From a virus (Duplodnaviria; Heunggongvirae; Uroviricota; Caudoviricetes), in IMG/VR virus record IMGVR_UViG_2617270952_000002, positions 1-27,724 of that record: a stretch of 27,724 nt of DNA. The stretch is one strand, 5' to 3'. Below are positions 9,129-27,724 of this stretch, one piece after another; the stretch's first letter is position 1; every line of letters starts with the position of its first letter. The notes under the pieces are model-generated. The model saw only the letters and a list, made by a program, of their open reading frames with translations, was not told the origin of the DNA and ran no database searches. A program made the translations under genes and the position numbers.

Positions 9129-9160
9129 ATTATGCCCGGCATCAACCGGGCATTCTTCCA

Positions 9161-10279
9161 TTATTCAGCCGCCACCGGTTTTAACAAGCCAGCATCGAGC
9201 AGTTTACGCGTCAACCACTGCTGGCCTTTACCCGTTAATTGAGGCGTCAACCGTATCTGGTAGCCATCTTCATCATCCAGCACCACTTCTTTCACCGTGA
9301 AATACCCCGCGTTGATGTACTGCTGGAACGGCACATTTTTACGTCCACCGGACGCTATCAGGATGCCGTTCTCCCGTAACCAGACAAACAGCGCGTTTTG
9401 TTTAAGTCCAACAACCTTTGCAAAATTCCCAATCAGGATCCCTTTAGCTACTGATACCCGGTCGGCAAAATCGACTTTAGGAGCGGCGGCCACCAGCTGC
9501 TGATTTAGCTGGTGGGCTTTCTGTTCCAGAAGTTGCTTTTGTTCAGCCAGTTCGGCAGCCAGGCGTAGGGCTTCAGGAAGCGTCTGGGGGATTGCGATCG
9601 GTTGCTGTTCTTTTTGTCGGAAGTAGCTGTCTTCCAGTTTTTCAAAGAATGCCCATGCCTGATCGGTTTCGAGCATTTTAGCGTGGCGGGCTGCGCCGCG
9701 TTCTGTCCAGAGGGGGAGTGAGCGAACATTGCGAGCAATTTTTACAGAGTAGTTTAAAGCTACTCTGTGCTTCAACTCGCGCAATGATTCTCCTTCAACT
9801 TTGAAAAAGTGCTTCCCTTCAACAAAGCGTACTTTGTTCTCATGATGATTTTGGCGAATACGGATTGTTTCTGTCCCATACCCTCTAGCAAGAGTCTCGG
9901 TTGTCACTACACGCACTCCCTGCCATTCCAGAACGGGAATTTCATCAGACTGATTCTGAACAACCACCAGCTCCGATTCTTGAACTGAAGGTGCATGAAT
10001 TTTTTCTGATTTAACGTTAGTTGCTTTCATTCTGTGTGCCTCCTTGCGTGCTTCGGCTGCGGCGGTTGCGTAATTCAGATGACCCTGTTCGAGCAGGTAT
10101 TCGCGGATATCAGACAACAGGATACGGTGAACCGCGTTCTTGTCCTTTCTCCGGTAAAGTTGTTTGGTGATCATGAAGTAGTTGGCAATAACGCCTGGTA
10201 TATCCCTGGTACTGATACAGGCAGTGTGCTGTTCAATTGCCTCGATCATCTCTTCACGGGTGACTAATGACGTTCTCAT
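9161..10279 (-). CDS. phage antirepressor-like protein (ORF6N-like central domain, KilA-C/ANT-like C-terminal domain)
   Basis: C-terminal ...VSVAKGILIGNFAKVVGLKQNALFVWLRENGILIASGGRKNVPFQQYINAGYFTVKE... resembles ANT C-terminal domain; central FVEGKHFFKVEGESL...LWTERGAARHAKMLETDQAWAFFEKL resembles ORF6N. Confidence 0.7.
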   Translation of the reverse strand: MRTSLVTREEMIEAIEQHTACISTRDIPGVIANYFMITKQLYRRKDKNAVHRILLSDIREYLLEQGHLNYATAAAEARKEAHRMKATNVKSEKIHAPSVQESELVVVQNQSDEIPVLEWQGVRVVTTETLARGYGTETIRIRQNHHENKVRFVEGKHFFKVEGESLRELKHRVALNYSVKIARNVRSLPLWTERGAARHAKMLETDQAWAFFEKLEDSYFRQKEQQPIAIPQTLPEALRLAAELAEQKQLLEQKAHQLNQQLVAAAPKVDFADRVSVAKGILIGNFAKVVGLKQNALFVWLRENGILIASGGRKNVPFQQYINAGYFTVKEVVLDDEDGYQIRLTPQLTGKGQQWLTRKLLDAGLLKPVAAE

Positions 10280-10497
10280 AGTCCCTCCTGAGCAGAAGCG
10301 TTAACAGGGAGGCACCAGTAACTGAGAGAATTGCGTGAATCAGTGGAAAAACGGGCAGAGAAAATACATGGGGCGTCAGGAAGCTGAGAGCGGGCCTCAT
10401 CTTCTGTCGGTGCAATAACGAAGTGATAGTGACGTTTTTGGCAGGAGTAAAAGCGCCAGATAAATTCAGGATGAGTTGGGATAGGGATAGTAGCCAT
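10276..10497 (-). CDS. hypothetical 73-aa protein immediately upstream of and overlapping the antirepressor start (Icd-like position)
   Basis: ATG at 10497 preceded by AAGGAGG; stop overlaps the antirepressor ATG (ATGA). Confidence 0.45.
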   Translation of the reverse strand: MATIPIPTHPEFIWRFYSCQKRHYHFVIAPTEDEARSQLPDAPCIFSARFSTDSRNSLSYWCLPVNASAQEGL

Positions 10498-10557
10498 ATT
10501 GGCAGCCTCCTTAGACGTTGGTATGTAACCACCGCAGAAGAGACCAATCTTGCTGGC

Positions 10558-10633
10558 GGTGGACTGTACGGAGTTGGCCTTACTGGCGTCCAAGGTAACC
10601 AGCCTACCCGAAGGTAGCCCCATACAGCCCACC
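10558..10633 (-). ncRNA. candidate structured regulatory RNA (c4-like antisense RNA position)
   Basis: 14-bp RNA duplex possible between 10620..10633 and 10558..10571 that includes two G-U wobbles (pairs only as minus-strand RNA), enclosing a CUACC-UUCG-GGUAG tetraloop hairpin at 10604..10617. Confidence 0.3.
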
Positions 10634-10661
10634 ATTGTAGAGGTGTGCGTGTACGCCGATA

Positions 10662-10686
10662 CAAAAAAAAGACGCGAGCGGCGTCT
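10662..10686 (-). terminator. rho-independent terminator downstream of pacB
   Basis: Hairpin gacgc-gagcg-gcgtc at 10671..10685 followed on the minus strand by a run of 8 T. Confidence 0.6.
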
Positions 10687-10816
10687 GTATCGCCTTAGAC
10701 TTAAGCGGGAGGCCAATCCCGGCACCCGTTTTAATGAGGTGCCTGATAAGCATAAACCGAAAATGCCTCAAGGCGCAAGAGGTCAGGCTCAATGTAACAT
10801 CGGTAGTTAAAAAACA

Positions 10817-10833
10817 CAATTTATTAGAGCAAA
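10817..10833 (-). promoter_or_regulatory. C1 operator
   Basis: caatttattagagcaaa; 15/17 to rc consensus. Confidence 0.6.
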
Positions 10834-10836
10834 TAT

Positions 10837-12321
10837 TCATTCATTAAGCCATGCCAGAGCTTCATCAACCTGCGCTTCGTCTTCGACGCTAAGCACTTCA
10901 TCCTGGGGAACATAATCCGCCAGCATAGCGAAACAATATGTATCCCAATGGTCTGGTGAGTGCAGGTTGAGTTTTTTCTTCATATCCTCCTTACTCATCA
11001 CCTTCCATTGACCTGCGGAGTTAATCCCTACAGGGATTTTCGACGCTTCCTCAATAGTTTCATTACCCTTATCCAGTCTCATACGACCAGATTTTACGGC
11101 CTCTGCGGCTTGAACGTTGGCATAAGCACGTTTATCAAAGTACAGGCTCTTATCTTCACGGCTATGCATCTTTTTACCCCAGCGTATACGCTGTACGGTA
11201 ATACCATAATACTCGTACATCAGATCCGCCGTTGCTTTACCCAGGCCATCGCCGTCTATCGCTATGGTGATATTTGGGAATCGCTCAGGATTACATTCTG
11301 CGAAAATTTTGGCGGCAAGCTGCGTTTCTGTAACGTCTGTGTATTCCAGCATTCGATAGTTGATTACACGGCGTTTATTTCGCTGGCCGGACACCATCAT
11401 GATATTGATAACGGACTTATCCCGTCCCGTACCACCAGCAACGTCCACACATGCAAGCCAGCCCCATCCTTTGGCAATCTTGACTTTCCGCCGCGTTGCA
11501 CGTTCAACCTCATCACGTCCAAGAAGGAAGCCATCCTGTGATTTAGGGAATAGGCCGCGTACCTTAATCATGTACATAGGGTTATCACGCCCGCCGTACT
11601 CCGCCAGCTTCATTTTGATAAATGCTGGCGTTACCAACGGTGATTCCTCACTGTTAAGCGTGATCGCCGTATAAACGCCATCAGGGTTACCAGGACGCTT
11701 GGCCAGTTTATGGTGTGTATCGTAGAAATAGCCGCTTGGGCGTGTAGGCTGTGACAGCAATAAGATGCGGTTATCCTGTCCGGTAAGAGCACCGGTGATG
11801 ATACCGAAAGCTCTATCACTGACACCGGAGGCTTCATCGATAATATACAGAAGATGATCTGCGTGTTCACCGGCGAGAGCTTCTTCACTTCCCAGACGAA
11901 AGCCCTTCGGTACTACAGTCCATACACCTTTACCAGTAACCTCATAGAAAGCGGTTTCTGTCAGAACAAAATAATCAGCAAGCCATGGAAAACGGCTGGT
12001 GGCAGTAGCCCAGTTTATCTTGATGTACTTGAATATACCGGTCATTACCTGCTGAATTTTGTTCGCAACGATAATGGCGCGGGCACCGGGATACATGATT
12101 ATGAACAACATGATCATGATAGAAGTCATGTCTGATTTCCCGGTACCGTGACCAGACGAAACAGATGTCTTGCTACCCTGTTCCTGCACAGACTCAATAA
12201 TCAGATCCTGCTGCCAGGTAGGTGTTTTGCCGAACAAAACATCAGCGGCAGCAATCCAGTCATAACGATATAGCGCCACCAGCTCGCGCCAACGTGGATC
12301 CGTTACGCAACTTCTGGCCAT
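10837..12321 (-). CDS. pacB: terminase large subunit (PacB-like)
   Basis: 494 aa; Walker [10 protein letters not shown], Walker [12 protein letters not shown]; same length as remembered P1 PacB. Confidence 0.8.
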
Positions 12322-12903
12322 TAATCATCATCCCCGTATAGCTTGCGGGTAACTTCTTCGTCTTCCTCCTCGTCTTCGTCCAGGTCTTGTTCCAGCCATG
12401 GGTCGTTTGATACACCTTCAGTATCAACATCTCCATAACCGCCTGTATCAACGATATCGGCGATTTCTTCCCTACGCTGCTCAATCCACAATGCGGCATC
12501 GGCGCGGCGGTTGGCGGCCCGTTCTCGCGCAACTTTGTCCAGATCTTCAAGAGAAGGGCCACCGACGGCTGTTTGCCTTTCCTCATCATCGGTATTGGTC
12601 TTAGGAGCACGCAGATCGGCTTTGATTTGCTCCAGCATCAGGGGCGGCACTTTTCCGCCATGCGCCTCGATGAATTCAGCTGCTTCCAGCACTGACCAGT
12701 TATTTTCACGCTTTCGTTCGTAAGCGCAGATAAACATCGCGCTTATCGACATCCAGATGCGGGTATTCCTTTTCAAGAATTGCTGCGAGTTCTTTCGCTG
12801 ATAGAAGAGATTTAGTGCGGATCATGTAATCCGCAATCTCGTACGATGTTATTCGTGAGTGATTTATTTCCATGAAGTGGCGTCCCTGCCAGTTAAGTAA
12901 CAT
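12321..12903 (-). CDS. putative terminase small subunit / DNA-binding protein region, split over two frames (12706..12903 and 12321..12776)
   Basis: Two overlapping ORFs related by a +1 shift; acidic C-terminal tail DEDEEEDEE abutting pacB start; C1 operator upstream. Confidence 0.4.
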
Positions 12904-12973
12904 CCTGTCACCTACTGATTAGCCCATGTCAACTAATCAACGTGAAATATAATACCCTCGATTAAAGAAATGG

Positions 12974-12990
12974 CAATACATTAGAGCAAT
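12974..12990 (-). promoter_or_regulatory. C1 operator
   Basis: caatacattagagcaat; 14/17. Confidence 0.5.
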
Positions 12991-12991
12991 T

Positions 12992-14035
12992 TTATCTAAC
13001 GCTCGACGAGTGACTTGTGATAGCGCCGACTCCAAGCGCGTAATCAAAGAACAATCGTTGATGCATCGCCAGCCTACCGTGCGTCTTCTCCCAATTATCG
13101 CGGTCACGCTCAATATCACGCTGGCATGACTGGCACAGAGGAATTGCGTAAATGTCATGCGCGTATAATCGACTATGACGAACGATATAAGGCGTAATGT
13201 GAGCGCCAGCTCCCGCCGCTCCACACCCACAGCATGGACGGGAAGCAACAAAGTCCATGTACTCAGGTAATTTTAGCGATTGCAGTTTTGGTATTTTGAA
13301 ATGCGCCATGCCAGGGTCGGAGTCAACATCCACAGGGCATACTTTTGCACGCATCGGCGCGGCGCGTTCTTCCATCATCTGAACATATGCTGTAGCGCGA
13401 TCGTCATACGGGCGAATATCCGCCTCTTTCAGAGGTCCGCTATCCTGCGTTGCGGCTTTCATCTTATTTATTGATATACGGCAAACTTCTTCCGGCATCA
13501 GGTGCATCATGTTGCGCATGAAAGCCCACCAGCACAGTTCCTGAATACTTAAATCATGGCCATCTGAAAGCCCCATTTCCTGACGGGCGACATCCAGTAT
13601 CCAGTTAACGCGATTATTATGCAGCGTTTCTTTCAGCTCATTAAAACCACGCATCCGGTAATGGTTATCGTGATGCCAGCACAACAACACCGCGCTATTG
13701 TCTCGTTCTGCGTGGACAATATGGTTGTCACACCAGCTACGATCTGCGGCCTGGCATTGCCCCTCTTTCCTGCGCAACCACGCCACCAGCGCGTCAATTC
13801 CACCAATACTGCGAAACAGTTCATCGCTGTTAAAAAACGGCTGCAACGCCTCATTTGTTGCCATAGTTTGCTCGGAAACAACGAGGCCGTCGTCCATGTG
13901 CTCGATTAACTCACGCGGCACCGGCTCCATAATAAATTTACGGCCAGCCTCCACCAGCTTTCTGACTTCCTGATCCACTTTGAATGTGGCGACGCCAAGC
14001 TCTTTTTGTACAAAGGGAGTAATTACGGCTTTCAC
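12992..14035 (-). CDS. hypothetical 347-aa protein with Cys/His-rich (Ref-like, HNH-like) motifs; GTG start
   Basis: Motifs [24 protein letters not shown] and [40 protein letters not shown]; the second resembles the Ref motif arrangement. Confidence 0.5.
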
Positions 14036-14062
14036 ATCACACCTTTCATCACTGATTGGGCT

Positions 14063-14242
14063 TTATCTGCTGCCCGGCATTCTCTGTTTAAGCACAACCA
14101 TTTCCTGACGGCATAACACAGCAATAGCGGTCCTGGCTCCAATTTGCTTACCAACCAGGTATTGCTTTACCTCGCGGCGACTCACGCCATCAAGAAGCAT
14201 CTTTAACGCTTCACGGGACAATTTGTTGTATTTGCGTGCCAT
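14063..14242 (-). CDS. hypothetical small HTH-like protein (59 aa)
   Basis: ATG at 14242 with GGAG 7 nt upstream; MARKYNKLSREALKMLLDGVSRREVKQYLVGKQIGARTAIAVL... Confidence 0.4.
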   Translation of the reverse strand: MARKYNKLSREALKMLLDGVSRREVKQYLVGKQIGARTAIAVLCRQEMVVLKQRMPGSR

Positions 14243-14246
14243 TAAT

Positions 14247-14627
14247 CTACTCCGCAGAACCATACAATCTACGTAACGTGTCGGCGACAGAAGATACAGA
14301 TATCTCGCCAGTCGCAGCGCCTACAGTAAGGTCTGCCAGTTCAGGTGAATCAAATACCTGCACCCCGTTACGGCGTAGAAATAGCAGCGCGCTGTTTAGC
14401 GCGGTACGCTTATTGGCATCATTGAATATATGCCCTCTCGCTGTAGCCACCAGGTAGGTGGCGGAGACTTCGAAAAGGTCGGTGATCTCTTCGTAGGCAA
14501 CTCTGGCCTGAACTCTCCCGATAATGGCCTCTGCCCTACCCGGATCTGACATTCCCGGCAAGCCGCCGTAGCGGTTTATATTCGCATCATGAAGCGCAAT
14601 AAGTTCTTCCGGTGATATATGCCTCAT
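14247..14627 (-). CDS. doc: Doc toxin (Fic-fold kinase)
   Basis: 126 aa; Fic motif [10 protein letters not shown]; overlaps phd stop. Confidence 0.95.
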
Positions 14628-14848
14628 TATCGGTTAACCAGTTCCTTGTTGGTGGAGTCCAGGGTGTCAAACAGGGATGCAAATTCAGCATCCAGCGCCG
14701 CTTTTTTGTAGGCTTCGAAAGTAGCCTTGCTGACAATTACTGCTGGCTCACGGCCTCTGCGGGTGATTTCAACCTCTTCCCCGGCCTCAACATTGTTGAG
14801 CACTTCAGAAAGGTTGCCGCGCGCGGTACGGAAGTTAATGGATTGCAT
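14627..14848 (-). CDS. phd: Phd antitoxin
   Basis: 73 aa [49 protein letters not shown]... Confidence 0.95.
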
Positions 14849-14852
14849 AAAT

Positions 14853-14890
14853 ACCTCATGTACTCGTTATGTGTACACAATTATAAACTT
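14853..14890 (-). promoter_or_regulatory. phd-doc promoter with palindromic Phd-binding sites
   Basis: TATAAT (rc of 14880..14885) adjacent to palindrome GTGTACAC at 14871..14878, about 20 nt upstream of phd ATG. Confidence 0.6.
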
Positions 14891-15024
14891 CACAGGCATA
14901 AAGCACCAGCACTTTGCGGCTTAACAAACCTCTAGGCAGGTCATTCGTAGCCTAATGTCCGAACTGCTAAAGCATCCAAGTTGCTGTAGAATCACATCCA
15001 ATTACATAAGCCTGAAATAAGTGG

Positions 15025-16587
15025 ATGAAAATGACAAGTATTCAACAACGTGCAGAGCTTCATCGTCAAATCTGGCAAATTGCTAACGATGTCAGGGGTT
15101 CGGTCGATGGATGGGATTTTAAGCAATACGTTCTGGGCGCACTTTTCTACCGTTTTATCAGCGAAAATTTTTCCAGTTATATTGAAGCCGGTGATGACAG
15201 TATCTGTTATGCGAAACTGGATGACAGCGTAATTACTGATGACATTAAAGACGATGCCATCAAAACTAAAGGCTACTTCATCTACCCCAGTCAGCTTTTC
15301 TGCAACGTAGCTGCGAAAGCAAATACTAATGACAGACTGAATGCAGATTTAAACAGCATCTTCGTTGCTATCGAAAGTTCTGCTTACGGTTATCCTTCAG
15401 AAGCTGACATCAAAGGTTTGTTTGCTGATTTCGATACTACCAGTAACCGCCTGGGTAACACCGTTAAAGATAAAAATGCCCGCCTGGCTGCGGTTCTGAA
15501 AGGGGTTGAAGGGTTAAAACTTGGTGACTTCAACGAACATCAGATTGACCTGTTCGGTGACGCCTATGAGTTCCTGATTTCTAACTATGCGGCGAATGCC
15601 GGTAAGTCAGGCGGCGAGTTCTTTACACCGCAACACGTCTCTAAGCTGATTGCACAACTGGCTATGCACGGGCAGACCCACGTTAACAAAATCTACGACC
15701 CGGCAGCAGGATCCGGTTCGCTGTTGTTGCAGGCTAAAAAACAGTTTGATGACCATATCATCGAAGAAGGCTTTTTTGGTCAGGAAATCAACCATACAAC
15801 CTATAACCTGGCACGTATGAACATGTTTTTGCACAACATCAACTACGACAAGTTTGATATCAAGCTGGGTAATACACTGACTGAGCCACACTTCAGAGAT
15901 GAAAAACCGTTTGATGCCATCGTTTCTAACCCGCCGTATTCGGTGAAATGGATTGGCAGCGATGACCCGACGCTGATTAACGATGAACGTTTTGCCCCGG
16001 CTGGCGTTCTGGCCCCCAAATCCAAAGCTGACTTTGCGTTTGTATTACATGCGCTGAACTATCTTTCTGCCAAAGGTCGTGCTGCGATTGTTTGCTTCCC
16101 GGGTATTTTTTACCGTGGCGGCGCGGAGCAGAAAATCCGTCAGTATCTGATTGACAATAACTATGTCGAAACCGTAATTTCACTGGCACCGAACCTGTTC
16201 TTTGGCACCACCATTGCAGTAAACATTCTGGTTCTGTCCAAACATAAAACGGATACCAACGTTCAGTTTATTGACGCCAGCGAACTGTTCAAAAAAGAGA
16301 CTAACAACAATATCCTGACCGATGCCCATATCGAACAGATTATGCAGGTATTTGCCAGCAAGGAAGATGTTGCTCATCTGGCGAAATCTGTCGCGTTTGA
16401 GACCGTTGTTGCTAATGACTATAACCTGTCGGTGAGCAGCTATGTGGAAGCGAAAGATAACCGCGAAATTATCGATATTGCTGAGCTGAATGCTGAGCTG
16501 AAAACCACGGTCAGCAAAATCGACCAGTTGCGCAAAGATATTGATGCGATTGTGGCTGAAATTGAAGGCTGCGAGGTGCAGAAATGA
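15025..16587 (+). CDS. hsdM: type I restriction-modification system methyltransferase subunit HsdM
   Basis: 520 aa; AdoMet motif DPAAGSGS and catalytic NPPY. Confidence 0.95.
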
Positions 16588-17798
16588 GCGAGATGAGTTA
16601 TCTGGAAAAATTGCTGGATGGGGTTGAAGTTGAGTGGTTGCCATTGGGGGAAATAACCAAATATGAACAGCCAACAAAGTATTTGGTAAAAGCAAAAGAT
16701 TATCACGACACATATACCATACCGGTTCTTACTGCCGGAAAAACATTTATTCTTGGATACACAAATGAGACTCATGGTATTTATCAGGCATCAAAGGCAC
16801 CTGTAATAATTTTTGATGATTTCACCACCGCTAATAAATGGGTGGATTTTGACTTTAAGGCAAAATCATCGGCCATGAAAATGGTTACATCATGTGATGA
16901 TAATAAAACCTTACTGAAATATGTTTACTATTGGCTCAATACATTACCAAGTGAATTCGCAGAGGGAGACCATAAACGCCAATGGATTAGTAATTATTCT
17001 CAAAAAAAAATCCCAATCCCCTGCCCGGATAATCCGGAAAAATCCCTTGCCATCCAGTCTGAAATCGTTCGGATTCTGGATAAATTTACTGCACTTACCG
17101 CTGAGCTTACCGCTGAGCTTAACATGCGTAAAAAACAGTACAACTACTATCGCGACCAGTTGTTGAGTTTTAAAGAGGGTGAGGTTGAGTGGAAGACTTT
17201 GGGAGAGATCGGAAAATGGTATGGGGGAGGGACACCATCAAAAAATAAAATTGAATTTTGGGAAAATGGAAGCATTCCATGGATTTCCCCGAAAGATATG
17301 GGCCGAACACTTGTAGACTCTTCGGAAGACTATATAACTGAGGAGGCTGTTCTACAATCGTCAACAAAACTGATTCCAGCAAACTCGATTGCAATCGTTG
17401 TTCGCTCAAGCATATTGGATAAAGTATTACCAAGTGCATTAATAAAAGTACCTGCTACGCTCAATCAAGATATGAAAGCAGTCATTCCTCATGAAAACAT
17501 CTTGGTTAAATATATTTATCATATGATTGGGTCTAGGGGGAGTGATATTCTGCGAGCAGCGAAAAAGACAGGAGGGTCCGTAGCTTCTATTGACAGTAAA
17601 AAATTATTTTCATTTAAAATTCCGGTTCCTAACATCAATGAACAACAACGAATTGTCGAAATACTCGACAAATTCGACACACTGACTAACTCCATCACCG
17701 AAGGTCTTCCGCGTGAAATCGAGTTGCGCCAGAAACAATACGAGTACTATCGTGATTTACTGTTCAGTTTCCCGAAACCTGAAACTGTCAGTAATTAA
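16584..17798 (+). CDS. hsdS: type I R-M specificity subunit HsdS (type IC-like, TAEL repeat in central conserved region)
   Basis: 404 aa; two target-recognition domains separated by ...[23 protein letters not shown]...; overlaps hsdM stop. Confidence 0.9.
17094..17117 (+). repeat. 2x tandem 12-bp repeat (cttaccgctgag) encoding TAEL-TAEL in hsdS
   Basis: Direct tandem duplication read in sequence. Confidence 0.85.
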
Positions 17799-17919
17799 TT
17801 GATCATTGCTACCGATCGGACCACCTTAACACCCGGTCAGTATATAGACTATTTTTTACGCGCCGGAAGTCACCATTACCCCCCTTCCGGCCCTTGCCAG
17901 ACGGCACAAAGGATGCGCT

Positions 17920-20900
17920 ATGACTCATCAGACACACACCATTGCTGAATCCAATAACTTTATCGTTCTTGATAAGTACATCAAAGCTGAGCCAACAGGC
18001 GACAGCTACCAGAGCGAATCGGACCTGGAACGCGAACTGATACAGGACCTACGGAATCAGGGCTATGAATTTATATCCGTAAAATCACAGTCGGCGATGC
18101 TGGCCAATGTTCGGGAACAGCTTCAGAACCTCAATGGTGTGGTGTTTAATGACAGCGAGTGGCGGCGTTTCACGGAGCAGTATCTGGATAACCCGAGCGA
18201 TGGCATTCTGGATAAGACCCGTAAAATCCATATCGACTATATTTGCGACTTTATTTTTGATGACGAGCGTCTTGAGAACATCTATTTGATAGATAAAAAG
18301 AATCTCATGCGCAATAAGGTGCAGATTATCCAGCAGTTTGAACAGGCGGGTTCTCACGCTAACCGTTATGACGTAACTATCCTGGTTAATGGCTTACCGC
18401 TGGTACAAATCGAACTGAAAAAACGCGGCGTGGCGATTCGTGAGGCTTTCAACCAGATACATCGTTACAGTAAAGAGAGTTTTAACAGCGAAAATTCCCT
18501 GTTTAAGTATCTGCAGCTGTTCGTCATTTCCAACGGCACTGATACCCGTTATTTTGCCAACACGACAAAGCGCGATAAAAACAGTTTTGACTTCACCATG
18601 AACTGGGCGAAATCAGACAATACGCTGATTAAAGACCTCAAAGACTTTACCGCCACCTTTTTCCAGAAACATACTCTGCTTAATGTTCTGGTGAACTACA
18701 GCGTTTTTGACAGCAGTCAGACACTACTGGTAATGCGACCGTACCAGATTGCCGCCACCGAGCGCATTCTGTGGAAAATTAAGAGTTCCTTTACAGCGAA
18801 GAACTGGTCAAAACCGGAAAGCGGTGGGTATATCTGGCACACTACCGGTTCTGGTAAAACCCTCACCAGCTTTAAAGCCGCGCGTCTGGCAACAGAGCTG
18901 GACTTTATTGATAAAGTCTTCTTTGTGGTCGACAGGAAAGACCTCGATTACCAGACCATGAAGGAATATCAGCGTTTTTCGCCAGACAGCGTCAACGGCT
19001 CGGAAAATACCGCAGGCCTTAAACGAAATCTGGATAAGGACGATAACAAAATTATCGTCACTACTATTCAGAAACTCAATAACCTGATGAAAGCAGAAAG
19101 CGATCTGCCTGTATATAATCAGCAAGTGGTGTTTATATTTGATGAATGCCACCGCAGCCAGTTTGGAGAAGCGCAGAAAAACCTGAAGAAGAAATTCAAA
19201 CGCTATTATCAGTTTGGTTTTACCGGCACCCCTATTTTCCCGGAAAACGCCTTAGGCTCAGAAACAACCGCCAGCGTATTTGGTCGTGAATTGCATTCGT
19301 ATGTAATTACCGATGCGATTCGTGACGAAAAAGTGCTCAAATTCAAGGTGGACTACAACGATGTGCGGCCACAGTTTAAGTCTTTAGAGACAGAAACTGA
19401 CGAGAAAAAACTGAGTGCGGCTGAAAATCAGCAGGCGTTTCTTCATCCCATGCGTATTCAGGAAATCACGCAATATATTCTGAATAATTTCCGCCAGAAA
19501 ACCCACCGTACCTTCCCTGGCTCAAAAGGTTTTAATGCTATGTTGGCAGTGAGCAGCGTGGATGCCGCGAAAGCCTATTATGCGACGTTTAAACGGTTAC
19601 AAGAAGAAGCCGCTAATAAATCGGCTACCTATAAACCGCTGCGTATTGCGACAATCTTCTCCTTTGCCGCCAATGAAGAACAAAATGCCATTGGTGAAAT
19701 TTCCGATGAAACTTTTGATACCAGCGCAATGGACAGCAGTGCTAAAGAGTTTCTGGACGCTGCAATTCGTGAATATAACAGCCATTTTAAAACTAACTTT
19801 AGCACCGACAGTAACGGTTTTCAGAACTACTATCGTGATTTAGCCCAGCGGGTTAAAAATCAGGATATCGATCTGCTAATTGTCGTGGGGATGTTCTTAA
19901 CCGGCTTCGATGCTCCAACATTGAACACGCTATTCGTCGATAAAAACTTACGTTATCACGGCCTGATGCAGGCATTTTCCCGCACCAACCGCATTTATGA
20001 CGCCACTAAAACCTTCGGTAATATCGTCACTTTCCGGGATCTGGAACGCTCAACTATTGATGCCATAACGCTGTTTGGTGACAAAAACACCAAAAATGTG
20101 GTGTTAGAAAAGAGTTATACAGAGTATATGGAAGGCTTTACTGATGCTGCTACAGGTGAAGCTAAACGCGGCTTCATGACAGTAGTTTCAGAACTGGAAC
20201 AACGGTTCCCTGACCCTACCAGTATTGAAAGTGAAAAAGAGAAGAAAGACTTCGTTAAACTGTTTGGCGAATACCTGCGTGCCGAGAACATCCTGCAAAA
20301 CTATGATGAATTTGCCACGCTAAAAGCCCTGCAACAAATCGATCTTAGCGATCCTGTTGCGGTAGAAAAATTCAAAGCAGAACATTATGTGGATGATGAA
20401 AAGTTCGCTGAATTGCAAACAATTCGTCTCCCTGCTGATCGCAAGATTCAGGATTATCGTTCTGCCTATAACGATATTCGCGACTGGCAGCGCCGTGAGA
20501 AAGAAGCTGAGAAAAAAGAGAAATCAACCACTGACTGGGATGACGTAGTTTTTGAGGTCGATTTGCTGAAGTCTCAGGAAATAAACCTGGATTATATCCT
20601 TGGACTGATTTTCGAACACAACAGACAAAATAAAGGCAAGGGCGAAATGATCGAAGAGGTCAAACGCTTAATTCGTTCAAGCCTGGGAAACCGTGCTAAA
20701 GAGGGCCTGGTGGTCGATTTTATTCAGCAAACGAACCTGGATGATTTACCGGACAAAGCCAGCATCATTGACGCATTCTTTACGTTTGCTCAACGCGAAC
20801 AGCAACGTGAAGCAGAAGCATTGATAAAAGAAGAAAATCTCAATGAAGATGCAGCAAAACGCTATATTCGCACGTCTTTAAAACGCGAATATGCCACCGA

Positions 20901-21036
20901 AAATGGCACAGAATTAAACGAAACATTACCAAAACTTAGTCCGTTAAATCCGCAATATAAAACGAAAAAACAGGCAGTTTTCCAGAAAATCGTCTCGTTT
21001 ATTGAGAAGTTTAAAGGCGTAGGCGGAAAAATATAG
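17920..21036 (+). CDS. hsdR: type I R-M endonuclease/translocase subunit HsdR
   Basis: 1038 aa; PD-(D/E)xK-like IELKK, Walker A TGSGKT, DEAH-like FDECH. Confidence 0.95.
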
Positions 21037-21115
21037 CCCAATTCGTGTTTTTCTTGCGGGTTCTTAATTAAACCCGCAAGAGACCGTGGGGTTCCAAATG
21101 GCTAATATACTCCCC

Positions 21116-21202
21116 TTACCCATGTGCGACGATATCGCCAAAAGTGATAGAGAACAGCCAGAAATAGATCGCGGCCATAATGATTTTGAATGCCGTGTTC
21201 AT
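21116..21202 (-). CDS. hypothetical 28-aa hydrophobic peptide
   Basis: MNTAFKIIMAAIYFWLFSITFGDIVAHG; AGGAG 7 nt upstream of ATG; C1 operator 83 bp upstream; not in the ORF track (below size cut-off). Confidence 0.35.
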   Translation of the reverse strand: MNTAFKIIMAAIYFWLFSITFGDIVAHG

Positions 21203-21230
21203 ATTTTCAGCTCCTGTGATTGATTGGATA

Positions 21231-21261
21231 CATGCCGCGCCTTGCGGCATGTTTTTATTTT
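21231..21261 (+). terminator. rho-independent terminator-like hairpin (plus strand, downstream of hsdR)
   Basis: catgccgc-gcctt-gcggcatg followed by tttttatttt. Confidence 0.5.
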
Positions 21262-21284
21262 CACTTTCTCTGCTTTAAAAATAA

Positions 21285-21301
21285 ATATTTATTAGAGCAA
21301 T
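21285..21301 (-). promoter_or_regulatory. C1 operator
   Basis: atatttattagagcaat; 16/17 to rc consensus. Confidence 0.65.
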
Positions 21302-21807
21302 TATTGTTGATGGAGAAGCGCGTTTTCATACTCCCTGACCATTAACGTAAGCACGCCGTGCCTCCTGAAAACACGCGCCACTTCAATCTTATCTTCCAGC
21401 GCGAACGCGATTTTACTTAGACCAATTTTCTTAAGGAGATCAATCTTTGCTGGGCCGTCATTTCTGTCATCGGTGGCAGGACGCATAGATAGCAAAGGCT
21501 CAGCCCCGTTTGTTACGTACTTCCGCAGCCAGGCTCGTGTTTTATCCCTTGCGATCTCACAGCGCCCGGTTACAAACCAGACCGTGTAAACGTTAAATAA
21601 CTGGCGCACAATATCAATAACTGGAGTTATGGGAGTATCAGTGTCACAGGCGAGATTAAACTCGTTCCAGTCCTTTGTTAATGCACCTTTACCTGGTGGC
21701 GGAAGCAAATGCAGTCTGTCTTCAGTTGCCTCTGATATTGTTCCATCAATATCAACTATGACGATATACGGACGTTCCTGGTGTGCGTGTTTATTGAAAA
21801 TACTCAA
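21301..21807 (-). CDS. HAD-superfamily phosphatase-like protein
   Basis: N-terminal IVIVDIDGTIS (DxDGT motif I); 168 aa. Confidence 0.6.
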   Translation of the reverse strand: MSIFNKHAHQERPYIVIVDIDGTISEATEDRLHLLPPPGKGALTKDWNEFNLACDTDTPITPVIDIVRQLFNVYTVWFVTGRCEIARDKTRAWLRKYVTNGAEPLLSMRPATDDRNDGPAKIDLLKKIGLSKIAFALEDKIEVARVFRRHGVLTLMVREYENALLHQQ

Positions 21808-21879
21808 ATGCCCTCCTCATTGGACGAAAAAAATGCTGGTGGGCGCACTCCACCAGCATCAAAAGTGACACTGTAACTG

Positions 21880-23142
21880 TCAGCGAACGTAAATAGTGCC
21901 GCCGTTCTCTTTTTCCCATGCATCGCTACGTGCATAGCAAACATCGAGAAGTCTTCTTGCCGCTGTTTCCTCTAAACCCAATTCGACAACCAACTGCTCA
22001 TGACGGCGGGTAACCACATCAAACAGGGTATGCAGCCCTTTAGCTGCCAGATCATCAATAAATTCCGGTTCGAACGGCAGCTCTGCCTCTGCCAACATAA
22101 CCTCTTGCGCCCACTCAACTCGACGGACCAGTTCCGGGCGGCGGCTTTCCATCTCTTTACAGATCAATTCATGGAAGAACTCTACCCAACCTTCCGGCTG
22201 GAACTCGCGGAAAATGGCCAACGGCTGGAAGTTTGGCATCAACCATTCGTTGATTCGGATATCAATGGCATAGCCCATGTCGCAGCAGAACTGATAAGCA
22301 AAGTCCAGCTTAGAAACGATATAAGGACGCTCGTTATTGAACTCTTTAGGCGATGAGATCCCATAAGCCAGGAGGCGCGGGAAGAAGGAGATTTGCCCTA
22401 ACGTCGGATGAAGTTTGCTTGCAGGGAAACGTCGCTCAGTAATGCCATACATTTCCTTCTTGAGCGTCGCAAATTTGGCATTCTCATTAACCAGCGCGGT
22501 AACCTCTGCTTTTTTATTAGCAAATGCCACGCGCGCCTCACTTGCATCTTTAATAGTCTTTTTGAGCTGTTGGTTAAGGTCGGCGACCTGCTTACGCAGT
22601 TCCTGTCGCTCACTTTTGGCTTTGTTATAGCGTTTCTCAAGGTTAAAAGGATCAAGTTTCATGATCTCTTTATATTGAGATTTTAGCGTTGAAATCTGTG
22701 AGTTCCGCAGTTCAACCATCGCGGTCACTTCATTGAGTTTTGTTTCCAGCTCAATGCTTATACGTTCGGCATTATCAGCACGCTGGTTGGCGTCATGCGT
22801 CGCATCGTCGATCGCGTCCTGTTGCTGGCGTTTCAAATGTTCAATTTGCAGCTGAAGCTCTTCAATTTCTTTACCCTTCAGACCGAGATCCAACTGCATA
22901 TTTTCAGCTGCATCTACCAGGGAGTTATGGCTATCAGCTTCTGCGTTATAAACATCAATAAGCTGTGCGTGAAGCATCTCCGCTGACTGAACCGCATTAT
23001 CAAAAAAACGTGCTGTGAGGTCATCACAACTAACGCGGCGTTGCGCGGCCCGGATGTTCTGGATAATGGCCGGGATACCGGCATTCAGGACATCAGGGAT
23101 AGATACATTTTCGATTGATTGGTTTTGTGCTGAAGTGCTCAT
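21880..23142 (-). CDS. hypothetical protein with long coiled-coil N-terminal half (420 aa)
   Basis: Track ORF; heptad-rich Q/E/K/L sequence in residues ~90-230; start immediately after upstream stop. Confidence 0.55.
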   Translation of the reverse strand: MSTSAQNQSIENVSIPDVLNAGIPAIIQNIRAAQRRVSCDDLTARFFDNAVQSAEMLHAQLIDVYNAEADSHNSLVDAAENMQLDLGLKGKEIEELQLQIEHLKRQQQDAIDDATHDANQRADNAERISIELETKLNEVTAMVELRNSQISTLKSQYKEIMKLDPFNLEKRYNKAKSERQELRKQVADLNQQLKKTIKDASEARVAFANKKAEVTALVNENAKFATLKKEMYGITERRFPASKLHPTLGQISFFPRLLAYGISSPKEFNNERPYIVSKLDFAYQFCCDMGYAIDIRINEWLMPNFQPLAIFREFQPEGWVEFFHELICKEMESRRPELVRRVEWAQEVMLAEAELPFEPEFIDDLAAKGLHTLFDVVTRRHEQLVVELGLEETAARRLLDVCYARSDAWEKENGGTIYVR

Positions 23143-23143
23143 T

Positions 23144-23362
23144 TCAAAGTTCCGTATTAGCTTGTGCTTCGGTCATTTTTCCTAAGTATGAAGGAGGAAG
23201 GACTACGCAATTTGTATCCAGTCCCTCACCTATGGCAGCCTGTAAAATTCTGGCTAAGGTGAGTCTCTTGTTGCGATACCTGGTGATGACATGCCTGATA
23301 CCGCCGGTCGGCGTAACAAAGGCGATCAGCCAGTAGTGATATTTCCGTCGGAATGGCCACAT
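23144..23362 (-). CDS. hypothetical 72-aa protein
   Basis: Track ORF; stop adjacent to downstream ATG (coupling); operator pair upstream. Confidence 0.4.
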   Translation of the reverse strand: MWPFRRKYHYWLIAFVTPTGGIRHVITRYRNKRLTLARILQAAIGEGLDTNCVVLPPSYLGKMTEAQANTEL

Positions 23363-23376
23363 AGTGCACCCTGTAG

Positions 23377-23442
23377 ATTGCTCTAATAAAAAACGTGATA
23401 AGTGTACATCACGTTTTAAAAATATGGAATTATTAGAGCAAT
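23377..23442. promoter_or_regulatory. pair of inverted C1 operators (23377..23393 and 23426..23442)
   Basis: ATTGCTCTAATAAAAAA and ggaattattagagcaat; each 14/17. Confidence 0.6.
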
Positions 23443-23443
23443 A

Positions 23444-24145
23444 TTATTCTGATTCTCGCTCAAAAAACGAGCTGATAAGGGGAAGCCAATCCTCTGACAC
23501 TTCGCGAGGTCGCGGTTTGCCGTGGAAAAAGATTATTCGGCAGTCTTTTGGTAATGCCCCATTCCCCCTGGAGTAACGCGCGCTCGCATATTTCGAACCA
23601 GGTTCCACAACATCGGCCTTGTAACTTACAAACCATCCCGGATACAGATCCTGAAATGCTGGTGTATCATCACCCATAACCTTCCGCAAAAACCCCTGCT
23701 CACCCCAGCATTCAGTAGTAACACAACGAGCAACCCAACCTTCCGGATCTTGCCAGAATGCACTCCAGATATGCGCTTTTACACTATTTGGTATCCACAG
23801 GGCACCGCTACCACGATATTGTGGATGGTAAAAATCCCTAAGCATGGTGAAGCTGGTTGGTGGATTCTCAAGGATTGGGCGTATATCACCGGCAATAACT
23901 GTGTCCAAATCCAGATAGAACAGATCATCTGTTATATCCGGTCGGAACAACTCTATTTTCGCCCACCAGCCACGGCACTTTTGCCACTGGTTGATCAATG
24001 GGACAACTTTGACGCCAGGTACATGTAAACGCTTCAGGTCTGTCAGGCAAATAATTTCATAGCCTTTTGGCAGTTGATTAACCAGCCACTGCACATCGGA
24101 AGCGTTATAGTCACCACCAGAGCGAAAAACTAAAGCAATCTTCAT
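23444..24145 (-). CDS. hypothetical protein with DxD motif (possible GT-A-like nucleotide-sugar transferase fold)
   Basis: 233 aa; ...[12 protein letters not shown]...; assignment weak. Confidence 0.4.
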
Positions 24146-24834
24146 GCTGCACCATCACCTTTCACTTTCATCAATGTCAGGTTTCCGCAAAATACGGCAC
24201 CAGTGTCGATATACTGCTGATTCCAGAATGTCTTCGGGCTTTTCACCGGAGTGTGACCAAAGATAAAACGATCTGCGCCCGAAATTTCGCCACCAATATC
24301 ATCCATCGAATCACTGATACGCTCGCGCGCCCAGACAACGTTGAAAAGCGGCACCTCCTTACCGAATTGGTATTCATTATCCGGATAGTCGGCATGGGCT
24401 ATAACGATAGTTTCTTGCCCGGTGTTCAACTCAATGATATAGGGCAGTCGTCTTACCAACTCCACCAGCGCCCAGGCTAATATTTCCTGCTCAGTGTCCA
24501 GCATGAAGAACCATTGTCCGCCATTCATTAGCCAGTTATTCACGTTGCCATCTGGACTTAACGCATCAATCATCAGCCGCTCATGGTTACCCATGACCGC
24601 TCTGAACCAGGGCATCTGCAATAGTTCCAGACATTCGACATTTTCAGTACCGCGATCGATAAGGTCGCCGACCGATATCAGTAAATCCTGCGCCGGGTCA
24701 AAATCCACACGATGGAGTTCGGACATCAGTCTGGTGTAGCAACCATGCAGATCACCAACAACCCAGACATTCCTGTATTTGGTACCGTCGATACGGTGAT
24801 AAATTGTGGGTGCCATCATGTATTCTTCAGCCAT
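24142..24834 (-). CDS. Ser/Thr protein phosphatase-family metallophosphoesterase (lambda PPase-like)
   Basis: Motifs GDLHGC, GDLIDRG, GNHE. Confidence 0.85.
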
Positions 24835-25442
24835 TCTTTAAGAGTCATCTGCGGAATACCTCCCATTCTCCCGCATGAAACAACGTCAATCTGTTCACGC
24901 GCAGACTGGAATAACAAAGGCAGGTGACTTAGATTTTTTGGCGTGCCGCCGGAGTGAACGCGTGGTTCTTGTGTAGCGTCAACGCCCACCAGGGCGACAT
25001 GTTTGAATCCGATATGGAAAGCCAGGTTCAGAGCGCCATATGCACTATTGCCGCTGGCAATTTCATTCTCATCTTCGCAAAGTCCGAAATGTGCGGACCA
25101 GCGCCACGCCCACCACTCGGGAGAATTCGTATTTTTTGGCTCCATGCCACGTTCAGCCACACGACGGAAGCACAGAACGCCGTCTCTGACTTCACGTTCT
25201 TTAACATCGGGTAGTGCCATGCAATAACAAACACCACGGCGACGGCGGCCACGACCAACGCGCCGCATATTGTCTGGCGATGGATCAAGTGTGAAAAAAT
25301 AAGAAGCGCGGTTCAGCCAGTCGATGGCCCCATTGACCGCTATAATCGGCACTCCGCGCGGCGCAACAAAGTTTGCGGCGCTTGGGCCACTGCCGACGAT
25401 AATAACGCGATCACTGCCTCTAAATTTATTCTTGGGAAACAT
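24816..25442 (-). CDS. hypothetical protein, GxGPS Rossmann-like motif (paralog 1)
   Basis: VIIVGSGPS...IIAVNGA; paralogous to next gene. Confidence 0.5.
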
Positions 25443-26002
25443 TGAATTGCACTGCTCCTACTTGCATTCAAAATATGTAAATCTGCGTGTTTTTTGCGGG
25501 TATCCAGGAACTGCTGTTGCCATTTTGAAATAGACACCTGCGTTGGATTCCGTAGGGCTTGAGGGTGTGCTCCATGCCAATGAAGGCCGTTTTGCAGAGA
25601 ACAGTCATAGCCGACTAATACAACTACTTCAGCCCCTGATTCAGCCGCCAGACTGATAGCCTGCGCGCCGCTATTAACCCCTTCAGCCGGTCCACAATAT
25701 CGCCTGTACTCCAACGAAAATGATTTCGCCGCCGCCAGGTTGGCTGTCACTTTGCGGAATCTCCCTCCCGGTATGGTGGATCCGTATTGCTTCCACCATG
25801 ACAAATCACCGGCGTATAAGGCATAAATGTCATCGAACATCTGCCAGGAATTGTTAACCGCGATGATTGAACAGCCAGTTTTTTCTATAGCAGCACAGTC
25901 CTCACGAGTGAGTGACGGACCGCTACCGACACAAAAAACAGTCCTAGTCGCCCTGGGTGGTATGTTCATTCTCAGCTGCAAATTCAGCCTCCAGGCGAGC
26001 AT
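25340..26002 (-). CDS. hypothetical protein, GxGPS Rossmann-like motif (paralog 2); start may be internal Met at ~25969
   Basis: VFCVGSGPS...IIAVNNS; shares LVG-D and HxG blocks with paralog 1. Confidence 0.5.
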   Translation of the reverse strand: MLAWRLNLQLRMNIPPRATRTVFCVGSGPSLTREDCAAIEKTGCSIIAVNNSWQMFDDIYALYAGDLSWWKQYGSTIPGGRFRKVTANLAAAKSFSLEYRRYCGPAEGVNSGAQAISLAAESGAEVVVLVGYDCSLQNGLHWHGAHPQALRNPTQVSISKWQQQFLDTRKKHADLHILNASRSSAIQCFPRINLEAVIALLSSAVAQAPQTLLRRAECRL

Positions 26003-26165
26003 TCATTTCAGCGATTACCGGGTCCACTACAGCATCTGCTTCCTGTTCATTACGCGGCATGATCGATGCCAGCGATTCATAATTAGCCTTGGATGACACG
26101 ATTATTCTCCCGATGTTAATGTGCGCTATATCAAAGAGCACACATGCACTAATTAATTTATTATT

Positions 26166-26744
26166 TCACGTAGCGTACAACCACTTGTCACCGTTCAATA
26201 CATGCTCAATAGCCTCACCCTTTTTAAGGCTCATGTATTCCAGGATGGCGGTTATCGCTTGTTCTGCACCATACGCAAGAACGACGTAGTAACCTTCCTC
26301 TCTAAGCCTGCGCATCCAGGCGATCTGCTCTTTCGTCGGGGCTTTACCATTTGGTTCTTTAAGCTCAATTCGCATGCCGTGATAAATACCGCATGCTTTA
26401 TCGAGACTCATGTCCGGATAACCTTTTTTCTGCCCTTCAGCCTTCATTTTCCCGGCGGTTGCTTTTGAACGTTTCCCTCCGTTAGGCGTTGCATGCAACA
26501 GCTCATAGATGTCAGGGTGCTTGCGTTCGAAGTAATCAAAAATGAAAACCTGCTCGAAGTGCTCGCAATTTCCGTCGCGCAGGTCGGGGTTCTTTGCCAG
26601 TGCTGCAAGTGCCTTCGCATGTGGAGAAACTTCTTTTACCGGCGCAAGCGATAAGAATGGATCCTTTTTGGTTTTTGGCCTGGACCGCCCCTTATTTCGA
26701 CGCTCACTAAAAGCCTGAAACTCTTCCTCAGTAAAGCGCAACAT
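26166..26744 (-). CDS. VRR-NUC domain nuclease-like protein
   Basis: ...HATPNGGKRSKATAGKMKAEGQKKGYPDMSLDKACGIYHGMRIELKEPNGKAPTKEQIAWMRRL... (PD-(D/E)xK-like D...ELK). Confidence 0.65.
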   Translation of the reverse strand: MLRFTEEEFQAFSERRNKGRSRPKTKKDPFLSLAPVKEVSPHAKALAALAKNPDLRDGNCEHFEQVFIFDYFERKHPDIYELLHATPNGGKRSKATAGKMKAEGQKKGYPDMSLDKACGIYHGMRIELKEPNGKAPTKEQIAWMRRLREEGYYVVLAYGAEQAITAILEYMSLKKGEAIEHVLNGDKWLYAT

Positions 26745-26746
26745 AA

Positions 26747-26992
26747 TCAGTCAAATCCTGCCGGTCGCATGCTATATTTACGCTGTTTTGCAGCCTGCTC
26801 TTCCCTGTGCCATTGCGCACATTCAGCGTCACAATAAATGCCTGATTCAATCGATTCATTGCAGTAACGACACTTCCCTGTAAATACCTGGCTCACGACC
26901 TGTGCCTGCTTTCTGATGTTATCGATGGCCATGTCTTTGAGAGCTTCTAACTGATTCATGCTCAGCTCTGCATCATCAACACGTTCTGCCAA
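26747..26992 (-). CDS. TraR/DksA-family C4 zinc-finger protein
   Basis: 81 aa; CRYCNESIESGIYCDAEC. Confidence 0.6.
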   Translation of the reverse strand: MAERVDDAELSMNQLEALKDMAIDNIRKQAQVVSQVFTGKCRYCNESIESGIYCDAECAQWHREEQAAKQRKYSMRPAGFD

Positions 26993-27049
26993 TTTTGTTT
27001 CCTCGTGAAGAACCTACTTAAGGGCAGAATGATACATTTCACAATCAAA

Positions 27050-27066
27050 ATTGCACTAATAATTTT
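27050..27066 (+). promoter_or_regulatory. C1 operator-like site in divergent intergenic region
   Basis: attgcactaataatttt; 15/17. Confidence 0.5.
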
Positions 27067-27138
27067 CTTTTATTGAGTTAAATAATCAACAAATGACTAG
27101 CGGTAGAATCACCATCATCTATTTCTGGCAGGCTGACT

Positions 27139-27525: not shown

Positions 27526-27724
27526 ACTTCCTGAGAAAGAGGTAAACAGGATGACTAAAAATACTCGTTTTTCCCCCGAAGTCCGTCAACGGGCAGTCCG
27601 TATGGTTCTGGAAAGTCAGAGCGAATATGACTCACAATGGGCGACAATTTGTTCCATTGCTCCAAAGATTGGCTGTACGCCGGAGACTCTGCGTGTCTGG
27701 GTTCGCCAGCATGAGCGGGATACC
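27496..27724 (+). mobile_element. IS3-family insertion sequence (IS629/IS1203-like), left end only (continues beyond window)
   Basis: Terminal tgaaccgccccgggaatcctggagactaaacttcc and OrfA N-terminus [58 protein letters not shown]. Confidence 0.8.
27550..27724 (+). CDS. IS3-family OrfA transposase component (partial)
   Basis: ATG at 27550 after GAGG; HTH-like N-terminus; truncated by window end. Confidence 0.8.

Follow-up and report, generated by a model that had tools for sequence, protein, structure and literature searches.

An EcoR124I-type restriction-modification cassette between phd/doc and pap on a P1-derived plasmid prophage

The stretch of viral DNA analysed here (27,724 nucleotides, referred to as the window) very probably contains the type IC restriction-modification system EcoR124I in functional-looking form; its carrier is a plasmid prophage derived from P1, in which it lies between the addiction genes phd/doc and pap and has replaced the P1 genes from pmgT to humD. 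The original prediction, a complete type IC cassette of EcoR124I size beside phd/doc on a P1-like element, was correct but ordinary: the enzyme is long-studied and the locus was known. It carries little weight beyond correct annotation, EcoR124I being among the best-characterised type I systems (crystal and cryo-EM structures).

Genes and identity of the cassette

Three genes made up the cassette:

15025-16587, + strand: hsdM, 520 aa, N6-adenine methyltransferase subunit (ORF list; TIGR00497, 648 bits)
16584-17798, + strand: hsdS, 404 aa, specificity subunit (ORF list; two Methylase_S domains)
17920-21036, + strand: hsdR, 1038 aa, ATP-dependent translocase/endonuclease subunit (TIGR00348, 775 bits)

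The order hsdM-hsdS-hsdR, with hsdR apart from hsdMS, was the layout of family IC (EcoR124I, EcoDXXI and EcoprrI): hsdM and hsdS overlapped by 4 bp (ATGA) and a gap of 121 bp separated hsdS from hsdR. Each translation had one terminal stop, and HsdM, HsdS and HsdR were each matched over their full length in Pfam and NCBIfam, with E-values of 0, which excluded chance. Besides the matches listed above, HsdM contained N6_Mtase and HsdM_N domains, and HsdR contained HSDR_N, SWI2_SNF2/ResIII, T1R_D3-like and EcoR124_C (PF12008) domains. Every motif sought for type I catalytic competence was found: motifs I and IV in HsdM (DPAAGSG at 225 and NPPY at 302), and the PD-(D/E)xK nuclease motif (D151...E165-x-K167), QxxxY (QIHRY at 179), Walker A (GSGKT at 310) and DEAD-box (DECH at 408) in HsdR. 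The ORF list, stops and motifs therefore agreed with the three intact genes of 520, 404 and 1038 aa first reported.

HsdS comprised two recognition domains plus a conserved central region in which TAEL occurred twice, at residues 172 and 176 (172-179; a 12-bp repeat at 17097-17120), and its conserved regions were internally duplicated (repeat families D2 and D6). In type IC HsdS subunits, the TAEL repeat sets the length of the spacer in the recognition site.

Type I systems are grouped into families by cross-hybridisation and by complementation between subunits. Judged by its sequence, the cassette is EcoR124I itself, which goes beyond the “type IC-like” system originally described. EcoR124I (a type IC system from the IncFIV plasmid R124; PDB 2W00, 7BST/7BTO) has the same gene order and subunit sizes (520/404/1038 aa), the same recognition domains and two TAEL copies. 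HsdM was identical to the EcoR124 HsdM chain 7bst_D at 518 of 520 positions (differences N243D and V376I). HsdS, whose recognition domains had been proposed for comparison with those of EcoR124, was identical to chain 7bst_A at 403 of 404 positions over its full length. HsdR was matched full-length to EcoR124I HsdR 2w00_A (2309 bits), with C247F as the sole difference in the printed part of the alignment, and C247F was also the sole difference with respect to HsdR of the IncF copy. High HsdM and HsdR identity together with EcoR124_C placed the system in family IC, and HsdS shared its two recognition domains and its spacer length with EcoR124I HsdS. Three amino-acid substitutions set the window's copy apart: N243D and V376I in HsdM, and C247F in HsdR, were present in none of the IncF and PDB reference copies or other P1-like alleles compared.

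Because the recognition domains and the two-copy TAEL are the same, the predicted recognition site is GAAN6RTCG, as in EcoR124I. On the strength of the identity with the enzyme already characterised, M2S1 would be expected to methylate the adenines of this site, and R2M2S1 to bind it where unmodified, to translocate DNA at the expense of ATP and to cleave at a distance. The outcome would be a lysogen or plasmid host shielded from unmodified incoming phage and plasmid DNA; the host strain is predicted to carry methylated GAAN6RTCG sites and to present a barrier against transformation. Avoidance of the site, which had been suggested for checking, was not seen in the window (8 GAAN6RTCG observed vs. 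7.55 expected; 5 GAAN7RTCG vs. 6.99 expected). This count gives no compositional sign of long co-residence, though an element that methylates its own DNA is not expected to show one.

The PDB label of 7bst_A reads “EcoR124II”, though a 404-aa HsdS with two repeats is the N6 form, as reportedly described by Price et al. (1989). A footnote in the literature describes the remaining IC members as 4 residues longer than EcoR124I.

Insertion site and P1-derived backbone

The cassette formed part of a replacement segment bordered by the following features:

14247-14627, - strand: doc, 126 aa, P1 addiction toxin in the left flank, collinear with P1 doc (97.6-97.9% nucleotide identity)
14627-14848, - strand: phd, antitoxin, divergent from hsdM (mapped from the P1 annotation)
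14880-14908, - strand: Pphd, P1-annotated promoter, divergent from hsdM (mapped through the collinear BLAST block)
14925-21111, + strand: replacement segment, 6187 bp, hsd cassette and the non-coding ends belonging to it
21116-21202, - strand: small hydrophobic ORF, 28 aa (MNTAFKIIMAAIYFWLFSITFGDIVAHG) and AGGAG ribosome-binding site, within the right flank of P1 origin
21301-21807, - strand: pap, first gene of the right P1-derived flank (97.7% identity to P1)
21880-23142: pmgS, after pap in the same flank (ORF list)

The flanks (12721-14924 and 21112-25000) were collinear with P1 (NC_005856) at approximately 97.7% identity, and the P1 annotation was mapped to the window via the collinear BLAST block (window 12721-14924, corresponding to L001 1722-3925). 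As the original prediction had it, phd and doc lay beside the cassette; they were immediately upstream of it. Homology to P1 ended at window 14924 (P1 87970) and restarted at 21112 (P1 84482), and the segment between them stood in for P1 84483-87969, the region of pmgT, pmgU, pmgV, upfM/N/O, hot, lxr and humD. In the P1 GenBank record, homology to the hsd flanks of EcoDXXI and R124/3 is annotated as ending at positions 87969 and 84482; the right junction of the window was exactly at the annotated limit and the left one within 1 bp. Transposon-like insertion was considered and rejected in favour of homologous replacement, since terminal direct or inverted repeats were not found at 14925 and 21111.

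The arrangement, initially presented as an apparent novelty, is a published and widespread configuration. The position of hsd beside phd/doc has been known since 1997, when a paper by Tyndall et al. (1997, Mol Microbiol 23:729) named the P1 DNA flanking type IC hsd loci in its title, and it is also recorded in the P1 reference entry.

The presence of c1, cre, ref, mat, pap, pmgS and C1 operators identified the backbone as P1-like (Punavirus). Several genes intact in P1 (lpa, pacA and darB, together with the pac site) were damaged in the window: a 1134-bp deletion (P1 90174-91307) cost the element its pac site, along with the 3' part of lpa and two-thirds of pacA from the 5' end, so that only a C-terminal PacA fragment was left, and darB was interrupted by IS elements at 1413. 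NZ_CP061751.1 is annotated with an identical lpa/pacA lesion. Since the lpa/pac/pacA functions are not intact, the element is better called a P1-derived, probably defective, plasmid. Loss of inducibility is predicted from the lpa/pacA deletion.

On such a decaying P1 derivative the cassette might itself be an inactive relic, silenced by N243D, V376I, C247F or the loss of a promoter. The degraded backbone would fit this explanation, as would the often disrupted hsd genes of relatives (an interruption in hsdS of phi456, split genes in the annotation of 673R5), but the three reading frames were full length with their catalytic motifs intact, and only 2 of the 32 nucleotide differences between hsdM and the R124-type IncF copy were amino-acid changing, which indicates purifying selection on hsdM. 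Moreover, active HsdR without modification would be lethal, and an intact hsdR therefore argues for a working hsdMS. A relic is very unlikely, and a functional-looking EcoR124I is the preferred reading.

Type III locus, transcription signals and C1 operators

The element had also been thought to have exchanged its restriction system. P1 carries type III res/mod genes between mat and lxc/ulx; in the window, no type III genes were found at this canonical place, which was occupied by an EAL-domain gene and an AraC-type gene, as also in the P1 isolate OP279344.1. PADLOC gave no defence match for the EAL gene, the AraC-type gene, mat, pdcB or pap. The absence of res/mod from its usual place was thus confirmed, but not the exchange: the res/mod locus is a separate variable region approximately 11 kb from hsd, and its independence follows from CP045689.1, a P1-like plasmid with hsdMSR and type III res/mod together. 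Both loci were likewise present in phi456, but there hsdS was broken by a 981-bp CDS (of IS5-like size).

The signals around the cassette were as follows:

14925-15024, + strand: cassette leader, cassette-specific, upstream of hsdM, the presumed PMOD region
17799-17919, + strand: hsdS-hsdR intergenic region, candidate separate hsdR promoter (consensus scan)
21053-21080, no strand assigned: inverted repeat, 10-bp stem just past the hsdR stop (read from the sequence)
21230-21262, + strand: terminator-like hairpin, intrinsic type with a T-run, first canonical terminator downstream of hsdR
21285-21301, - strand: C1 operator OpmgT (Op88), one mismatch to the consensus (mapped from the P1 annotation)

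The textbook organisation of EcoR124I consists of two transcription units. In the window, a promoter within the 100-bp leader, divergent from Pphd, probably serves hsdM and hsdS together; a consensus scan of this leader (14925-15024) returned no strong promoter, and the candidate is a TAGAAT -10-like hexamer spotted by eye at 14987-14992. After the 121-bp gap, hsdR may be transcribed from its own candidate promoter, TTAACA-18-TATTTT at 17826-17855, which is a pattern match only. The inverted repeat at 21053-21080 had no U-tract on either strand and was not called by the terminator scan.

Ten C1-operator matches were found in the window (vs. 0.18 expected) in a search allowing 3 mismatches, but none lay between 12991 and 21284, and none was upstream of hsdM or hsdR. 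The nearest (21285-21301) controls PpmgT, promoters predicted in the P1 record that read the - strand, convergent on the hsdR 3' end and antisense to it. These positions contradict the potential C1-linked control that had been proposed. The same evidence bears on the broader idea that a P1-like element gave up type III EcoP1I in exchange for a type I system under the C1 repressor, tying restriction to lysogeny. The missing res/mod genes and the operator approximately 250 bp past hsdR speak for such a swap, but the two loci vary independently, the only C1-controlled promoter nearby is antisense to hsdR, and the cassette works on IncF plasmids without the surrounding P1 backbone. The swap is largely refuted and extremely unlikely; an EcoR124I cassette placed by homologous replacement, with candidate promoters of its own, is retained.

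The 28-aa ORF at 21116-21202 is situated between PpmgT and the cassette and is unannotated in P1; at the equivalent place in NZ_CP061751.1, PGAP has a 135-bp CDS (44 aa). No canonical terminator was found on the - strand between PpmgT and hsdR. On an unlikely reading, the C1-repressed PpmgT would read across this ORF into the antisense strand of hsdR, and its derepression could lower hsdR expression or, alternatively, could express the ORF as a small membrane peptide. If true, the antisense or peptide reading would couple restriction to the lysogenic state.

Distribution and exchange of alleles

The same arrangement was found, at a coverage of at least 80%, in 290 PLSDB plasmids, in 177 of 5426 complete E. 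coli genomes and in the phages phi456 and vB_EcoM-673R5; the query was covered in full by none of the phage, plasmid or E. coli records searched. The hsdS gene of the window was 100% identical at the nucleotide level to that of the IncF plasmids NZ_LR882053 and NZ_CP103563, and the mismatch map revealed a tract of approximately 5 kb (16153-21124) with 99.96% identity to R124-type IncF plasmids, in surroundings of approximately 98%. The R124-type IncF copies have only a pdcB stub, pdcA, doc and phd in the left flank and 84 bp in the right, on a backbone unlike the long P1-derived plasmid of the window.

On a P1 backbone, the exact EcoR124I specificity allele is mildly new, being otherwise seen only on IncF plasmids. 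A search of the literature on P1-like elements with hsdR/hsdM found no specific report. The window may perhaps be the first exact EcoR124I allele in its presumed ancestral P1-type context, after a recent exchange of approximately 5 kb with R124-type IncF plasmids; that this holds jointly with a tie of restriction to lysogeny through PpmgT derepression is unlikely. An exact allele on this backbone is in line with an old proposal in which such systems are spread by P1-like phages. The cassette would have spread through homologous recombination, both in the flanks derived from P1 and inside the conserved hsd genes, and the window illustrates how type IC cassettes and specificity genes may move in this way between P1-like prophages and IncF plasmids.

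P1-like plasmid prophages (pSZL38.1 NZ_CP085986, NZ_CP061751, vB_EcoM-673R5 and phi456) and EcoDXXI used the same slot, from phd/doc to pap, with junction homology matching the P1 annotation and with hsdM and hsdR 96-99% identical to those of the window. Their HsdS recognition domains differed in one or both halves, as is typical of type IC systems, whose domains are shuffled as modules; pSZL38.1 had the second recognition domain alone in common with the window.

Genes of the hsd cassette and identity with EcoR124I

Three genes lay between the P1 addiction module (phd/doc) and pap, each closed by a single terminal stop in a mechanical ORF list:

15025-16587, plus strand, hsdM (520 aa)
16584-17798, plus strand, hsdS (404 aa)
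17920-21036, plus strand, hsdR (1038 aa)

The exact coordinates and sizes in this list bore out the original prediction of three intact reading frames with catalytic motifs. Full-length Pfam/NCBIfam matches (E-values from about 1e-34 for HsdS to 1e-233 for HsdR) were obtained for HsdM (TIGR00497, N6_Mtase and HsdM_N), HsdS (two Methylase_S domains) and HsdR (TIGR00348, HSDR_N, SWI2_SNF2/ResIII, T1R_D3-like and EcoR124_C), and PADLOC called the three proteins as type I methyltransferase, specificity subunit and restriction enzyme, respectively. Catalytic motifs were present in HsdM (DPAAGSG at 225, NPPY at 302) and HsdR (D151/E165/K167, QIHRY at 179, GSGKT at 310, DECH at 408). Only two of 32 nucleotide differences in hsdM were amino-acid-changing, and gene integrity is on this count consistent with selection for function.

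The predicted family, type IC and EcoR124I-like, was right: in PDB sequence searches all three subunits were near-identical to EcoR124I chains. HsdR aligned end-to-end with the 1038-aa EcoR124I HsdR (2w00_A, 2309 bits), with C247F as the single substitution within the printed portion of the alignment; HsdS was identical to 7bst_A at 403 of 404 residues, spanning both target-recognition domains, and HsdM to 7bst_D at 518 of 520. The hsdS DNA was 100% identical to hsdS on natural IncF plasmids. The HsdS central spacer contained TAEL twice (residues 172-179, DNA 17097-17120). Price et al. are said to have described, in 1989, two copies of TAEL for EcoR124I (GAAN6RTCG) and three for EcoR124II (N7); on that basis the spacer found here is the EcoR124I form. 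A footnote, as quoted in the literature, agrees, giving EcoR124I as four residues shorter than other IC members. Judged by sequence, the cassette is EcoR124I itself, beyond a mere type IC relative.

Given the identity with the characterized enzyme, M2S1 would methylate GAAN6RTCG, and R2M2S1 at an unmodified site would translocate DNA in an ATP-driven manner and then cleave at a distance; through these two activities the element would protect its host against foreign DNA. The adjoining phd/doc module would stabilize the plasmid.

Replacement of P1 genes and recombination with IncF plasmids

The window was P1-type DNA, in reverse orientation relative to the P1 reference NC_005856. BLAST gave collinear blocks of about 97.7% identity at 12721-14924 (P1 87970-90173) and 21112-25000 (P1 80594-84482). 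Because these blocks stop and resume at its ends, the 6187-bp segment 14925-21111 replaces 3487 bp of P1 (pmgT, pmgU, pmgV, upfM/N/O, hot, lxr and humD). No terminal repeats were found flanking 14925-21111, which fits replacement by homologous recombination and not transposition. In the P1 GenBank annotation, P1 87969-88647 is 98% identical to the upstream flank of the EcoDXXI hsd locus, and P1 84263-84482 and 84399-84482 are homologous to sequence downstream of EcoDXXI and R124/3 hsdR, respectively; the right-hand breakpoint of the window fell on these limits to the base, and the left-hand one differed by no more than 1 bp. This junction arrangement corresponds to Tyndall et al. (1997), by whose title type IC hsd loci have P1 DNA at their flanks, and a 2022 survey lists eight hypervariable regions in P1-like phage-plasmids, among them pmgT-humD and, separately, res-mod. 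The arrangement in P1-type DNA is already published and widespread.

The cassette arrangement was also common: 14000-22000 matched 1679 PLSDB plasmids (coverage at least 80% in 290) and phages phi456 and vB_EcoM-673R5, and among 5426 complete E. coli genomes 177 matched 12000-22000 at a coverage of at least 80%. In other P1-like plasmids hsdM and hsdR were 96-99% identical to the window, but the recognition domains differed; HsdS of pSZL38.1 had only the second in common.

The exact hsdS allele was rare (two PLSDB plasmids, six E. coli records), and the three carriers inspected were all IncF-type contexts with repE, sopAB and ccdAB. These kept only a pdcB stub, pdcA, doc and phd to the left of the cassette, and only 84 bp of P1-like DNA, followed by IS1, to the right. 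Against one such plasmid the window showed 51 mismatches at 13784-16152, only two at 16153-21124 (99.96% identity), followed by three more at 21125-21135. Within hsdM, the 5'-terminal 1.1 kb (15025-16152) was about 2.8% divergent from R124-type IncF plasmids, nearly all of it synonymous. From these alignments, the cassette is a mosaic: one breakpoint lies within hsdM, close to 16152, and a second at the right-hand junction of the cassette. The mismatch contrast points to recent recombination in which about 5 kb was exchanged, comprising hsdS, hsdR and the hsdM 3' end.

Transcription signals and GAAN6RTCG sites

phd/doc and hsdM were divergently oriented, and the 100-bp cassette leader held only a weak promoter-like candidate, picked by eye. 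The signals around the cassette were:

14880-14908, minus strand, Pphd, mapped from the P1 annotation, just outside the junction
Ahead of hsdR, plus strand, candidate hsdR promoter TTAACA-18-TATTTT (promoter scan)
21230-21262, plus strand, terminator-like hairpin with T-run, where hsdR transcripts would first meet a canonical terminator
21285-21301, minus strand, OpmgT/Op88, the nearest C1 operator; promoters predicted in the P1 record read the minus strand

Control linked to C1, the P1 repressor, had been proposed and was unsupported. A consensus search of the window gave 10 operator matches (0.18 expected), none of them between 12991 and 21284. The predicted promoters controlled by OpmgT run via a 28-aa ORF (21116-21202) towards the hsdR 3' end; as PpmgT reads the minus strand, any C1 linkage would be antisense. 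This hydrophobic ORF (MNTAFKIIMAAIYFWLFSITFGDIVAHG, minus strand, AGGAG ribosome-binding site), downstream of C1-controlled PpmgT, sits in the short P1-derived flank also kept on R124-type IncF plasmids; it is unannotated in the P1 reference, and PGAP annotated a 44-aa version in NZ_CP061751.1.

Recognition sites were not avoided in the window (GAAN6RTCG, 8 observed vs. 7.55 expected; GAAN7RTCG, 5 vs. 6.99). All eight GAAN6RTCG sites fell in 505-10255 or at 27642, leaving 17.4 kb (10256-27641, including the cassette) with none where about 5 were expected. This gap could be chance (roughly P = 0.01 if the interval were pre-specified, weaker allowing for its choice).

The type III site and other changes to the P1 backbone

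The canonical site of res/mod, the P1 type III genes, was occupied as follows:

1664-2104 and 2101-2349, ulx and lxc, one border
2388-3122, minus strand, AraC-type HTH gene, within 2350-4080
3346-4035, plus strand, EAL-domain gene, within 2350-4080
4089-4760, mat, the other border

The EAL/AraC-type pair was divergent, low in GC (about 32%) and without a PADLOC match for either gene, and the stretch was 99% identical to P1 isolate OP279344.1 (record title "del res del mod"). An exchange of restriction systems had been envisaged; type III genes were indeed absent from this site, but a coupled swap did not hold, as the P1-like plasmid CP045689.1 has both hsdMSR and type III res/mod annotated. 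Both loci were also present in phi456, its hsdS broken by a 981-bp CDS of IS5-like size. The res/mod site is a hypervariable region separate from the hsd site, and on this comparison the two changes are independent events.

The anti-restriction gene darB was cut at 1413, with just a 3' stub left before ulx, so this type I enzyme-encoding element lost part of P1's anti-type-I Dar system; upstream were fragments of an IS3-family element (972-1376) and of an IS1 transposase (83-565). Both lpa and pacA were truncated by a 1134-bp deletion relative to P1 (P1 90174-91307; junction 12721-12736, 16-bp overlap), affecting 12321-12903: lpa lacked its 3' part and pacA its 5' two-thirds, with only the C-terminal 151 aa of PacA remaining. 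Lost as well were the pac cleavage site and LPpac, a late promoter. Late-gene activation and DNA packaging are probably beyond this element. PGAP annotated the same lpa/pacA truncations in plasmid NZ_CP061751.1. Between c1 (8277-9128) and pacB (10837-12321), within 9161-10725, an antirepressor-like gene (ORF6N and KilAC, 372 aa) and a 149-aa regulator-like gene were preceded by a C1 operator (10817-10833); the P1 reference lacks both genes here, whereas RCS47 has "ant" annotated at this position.
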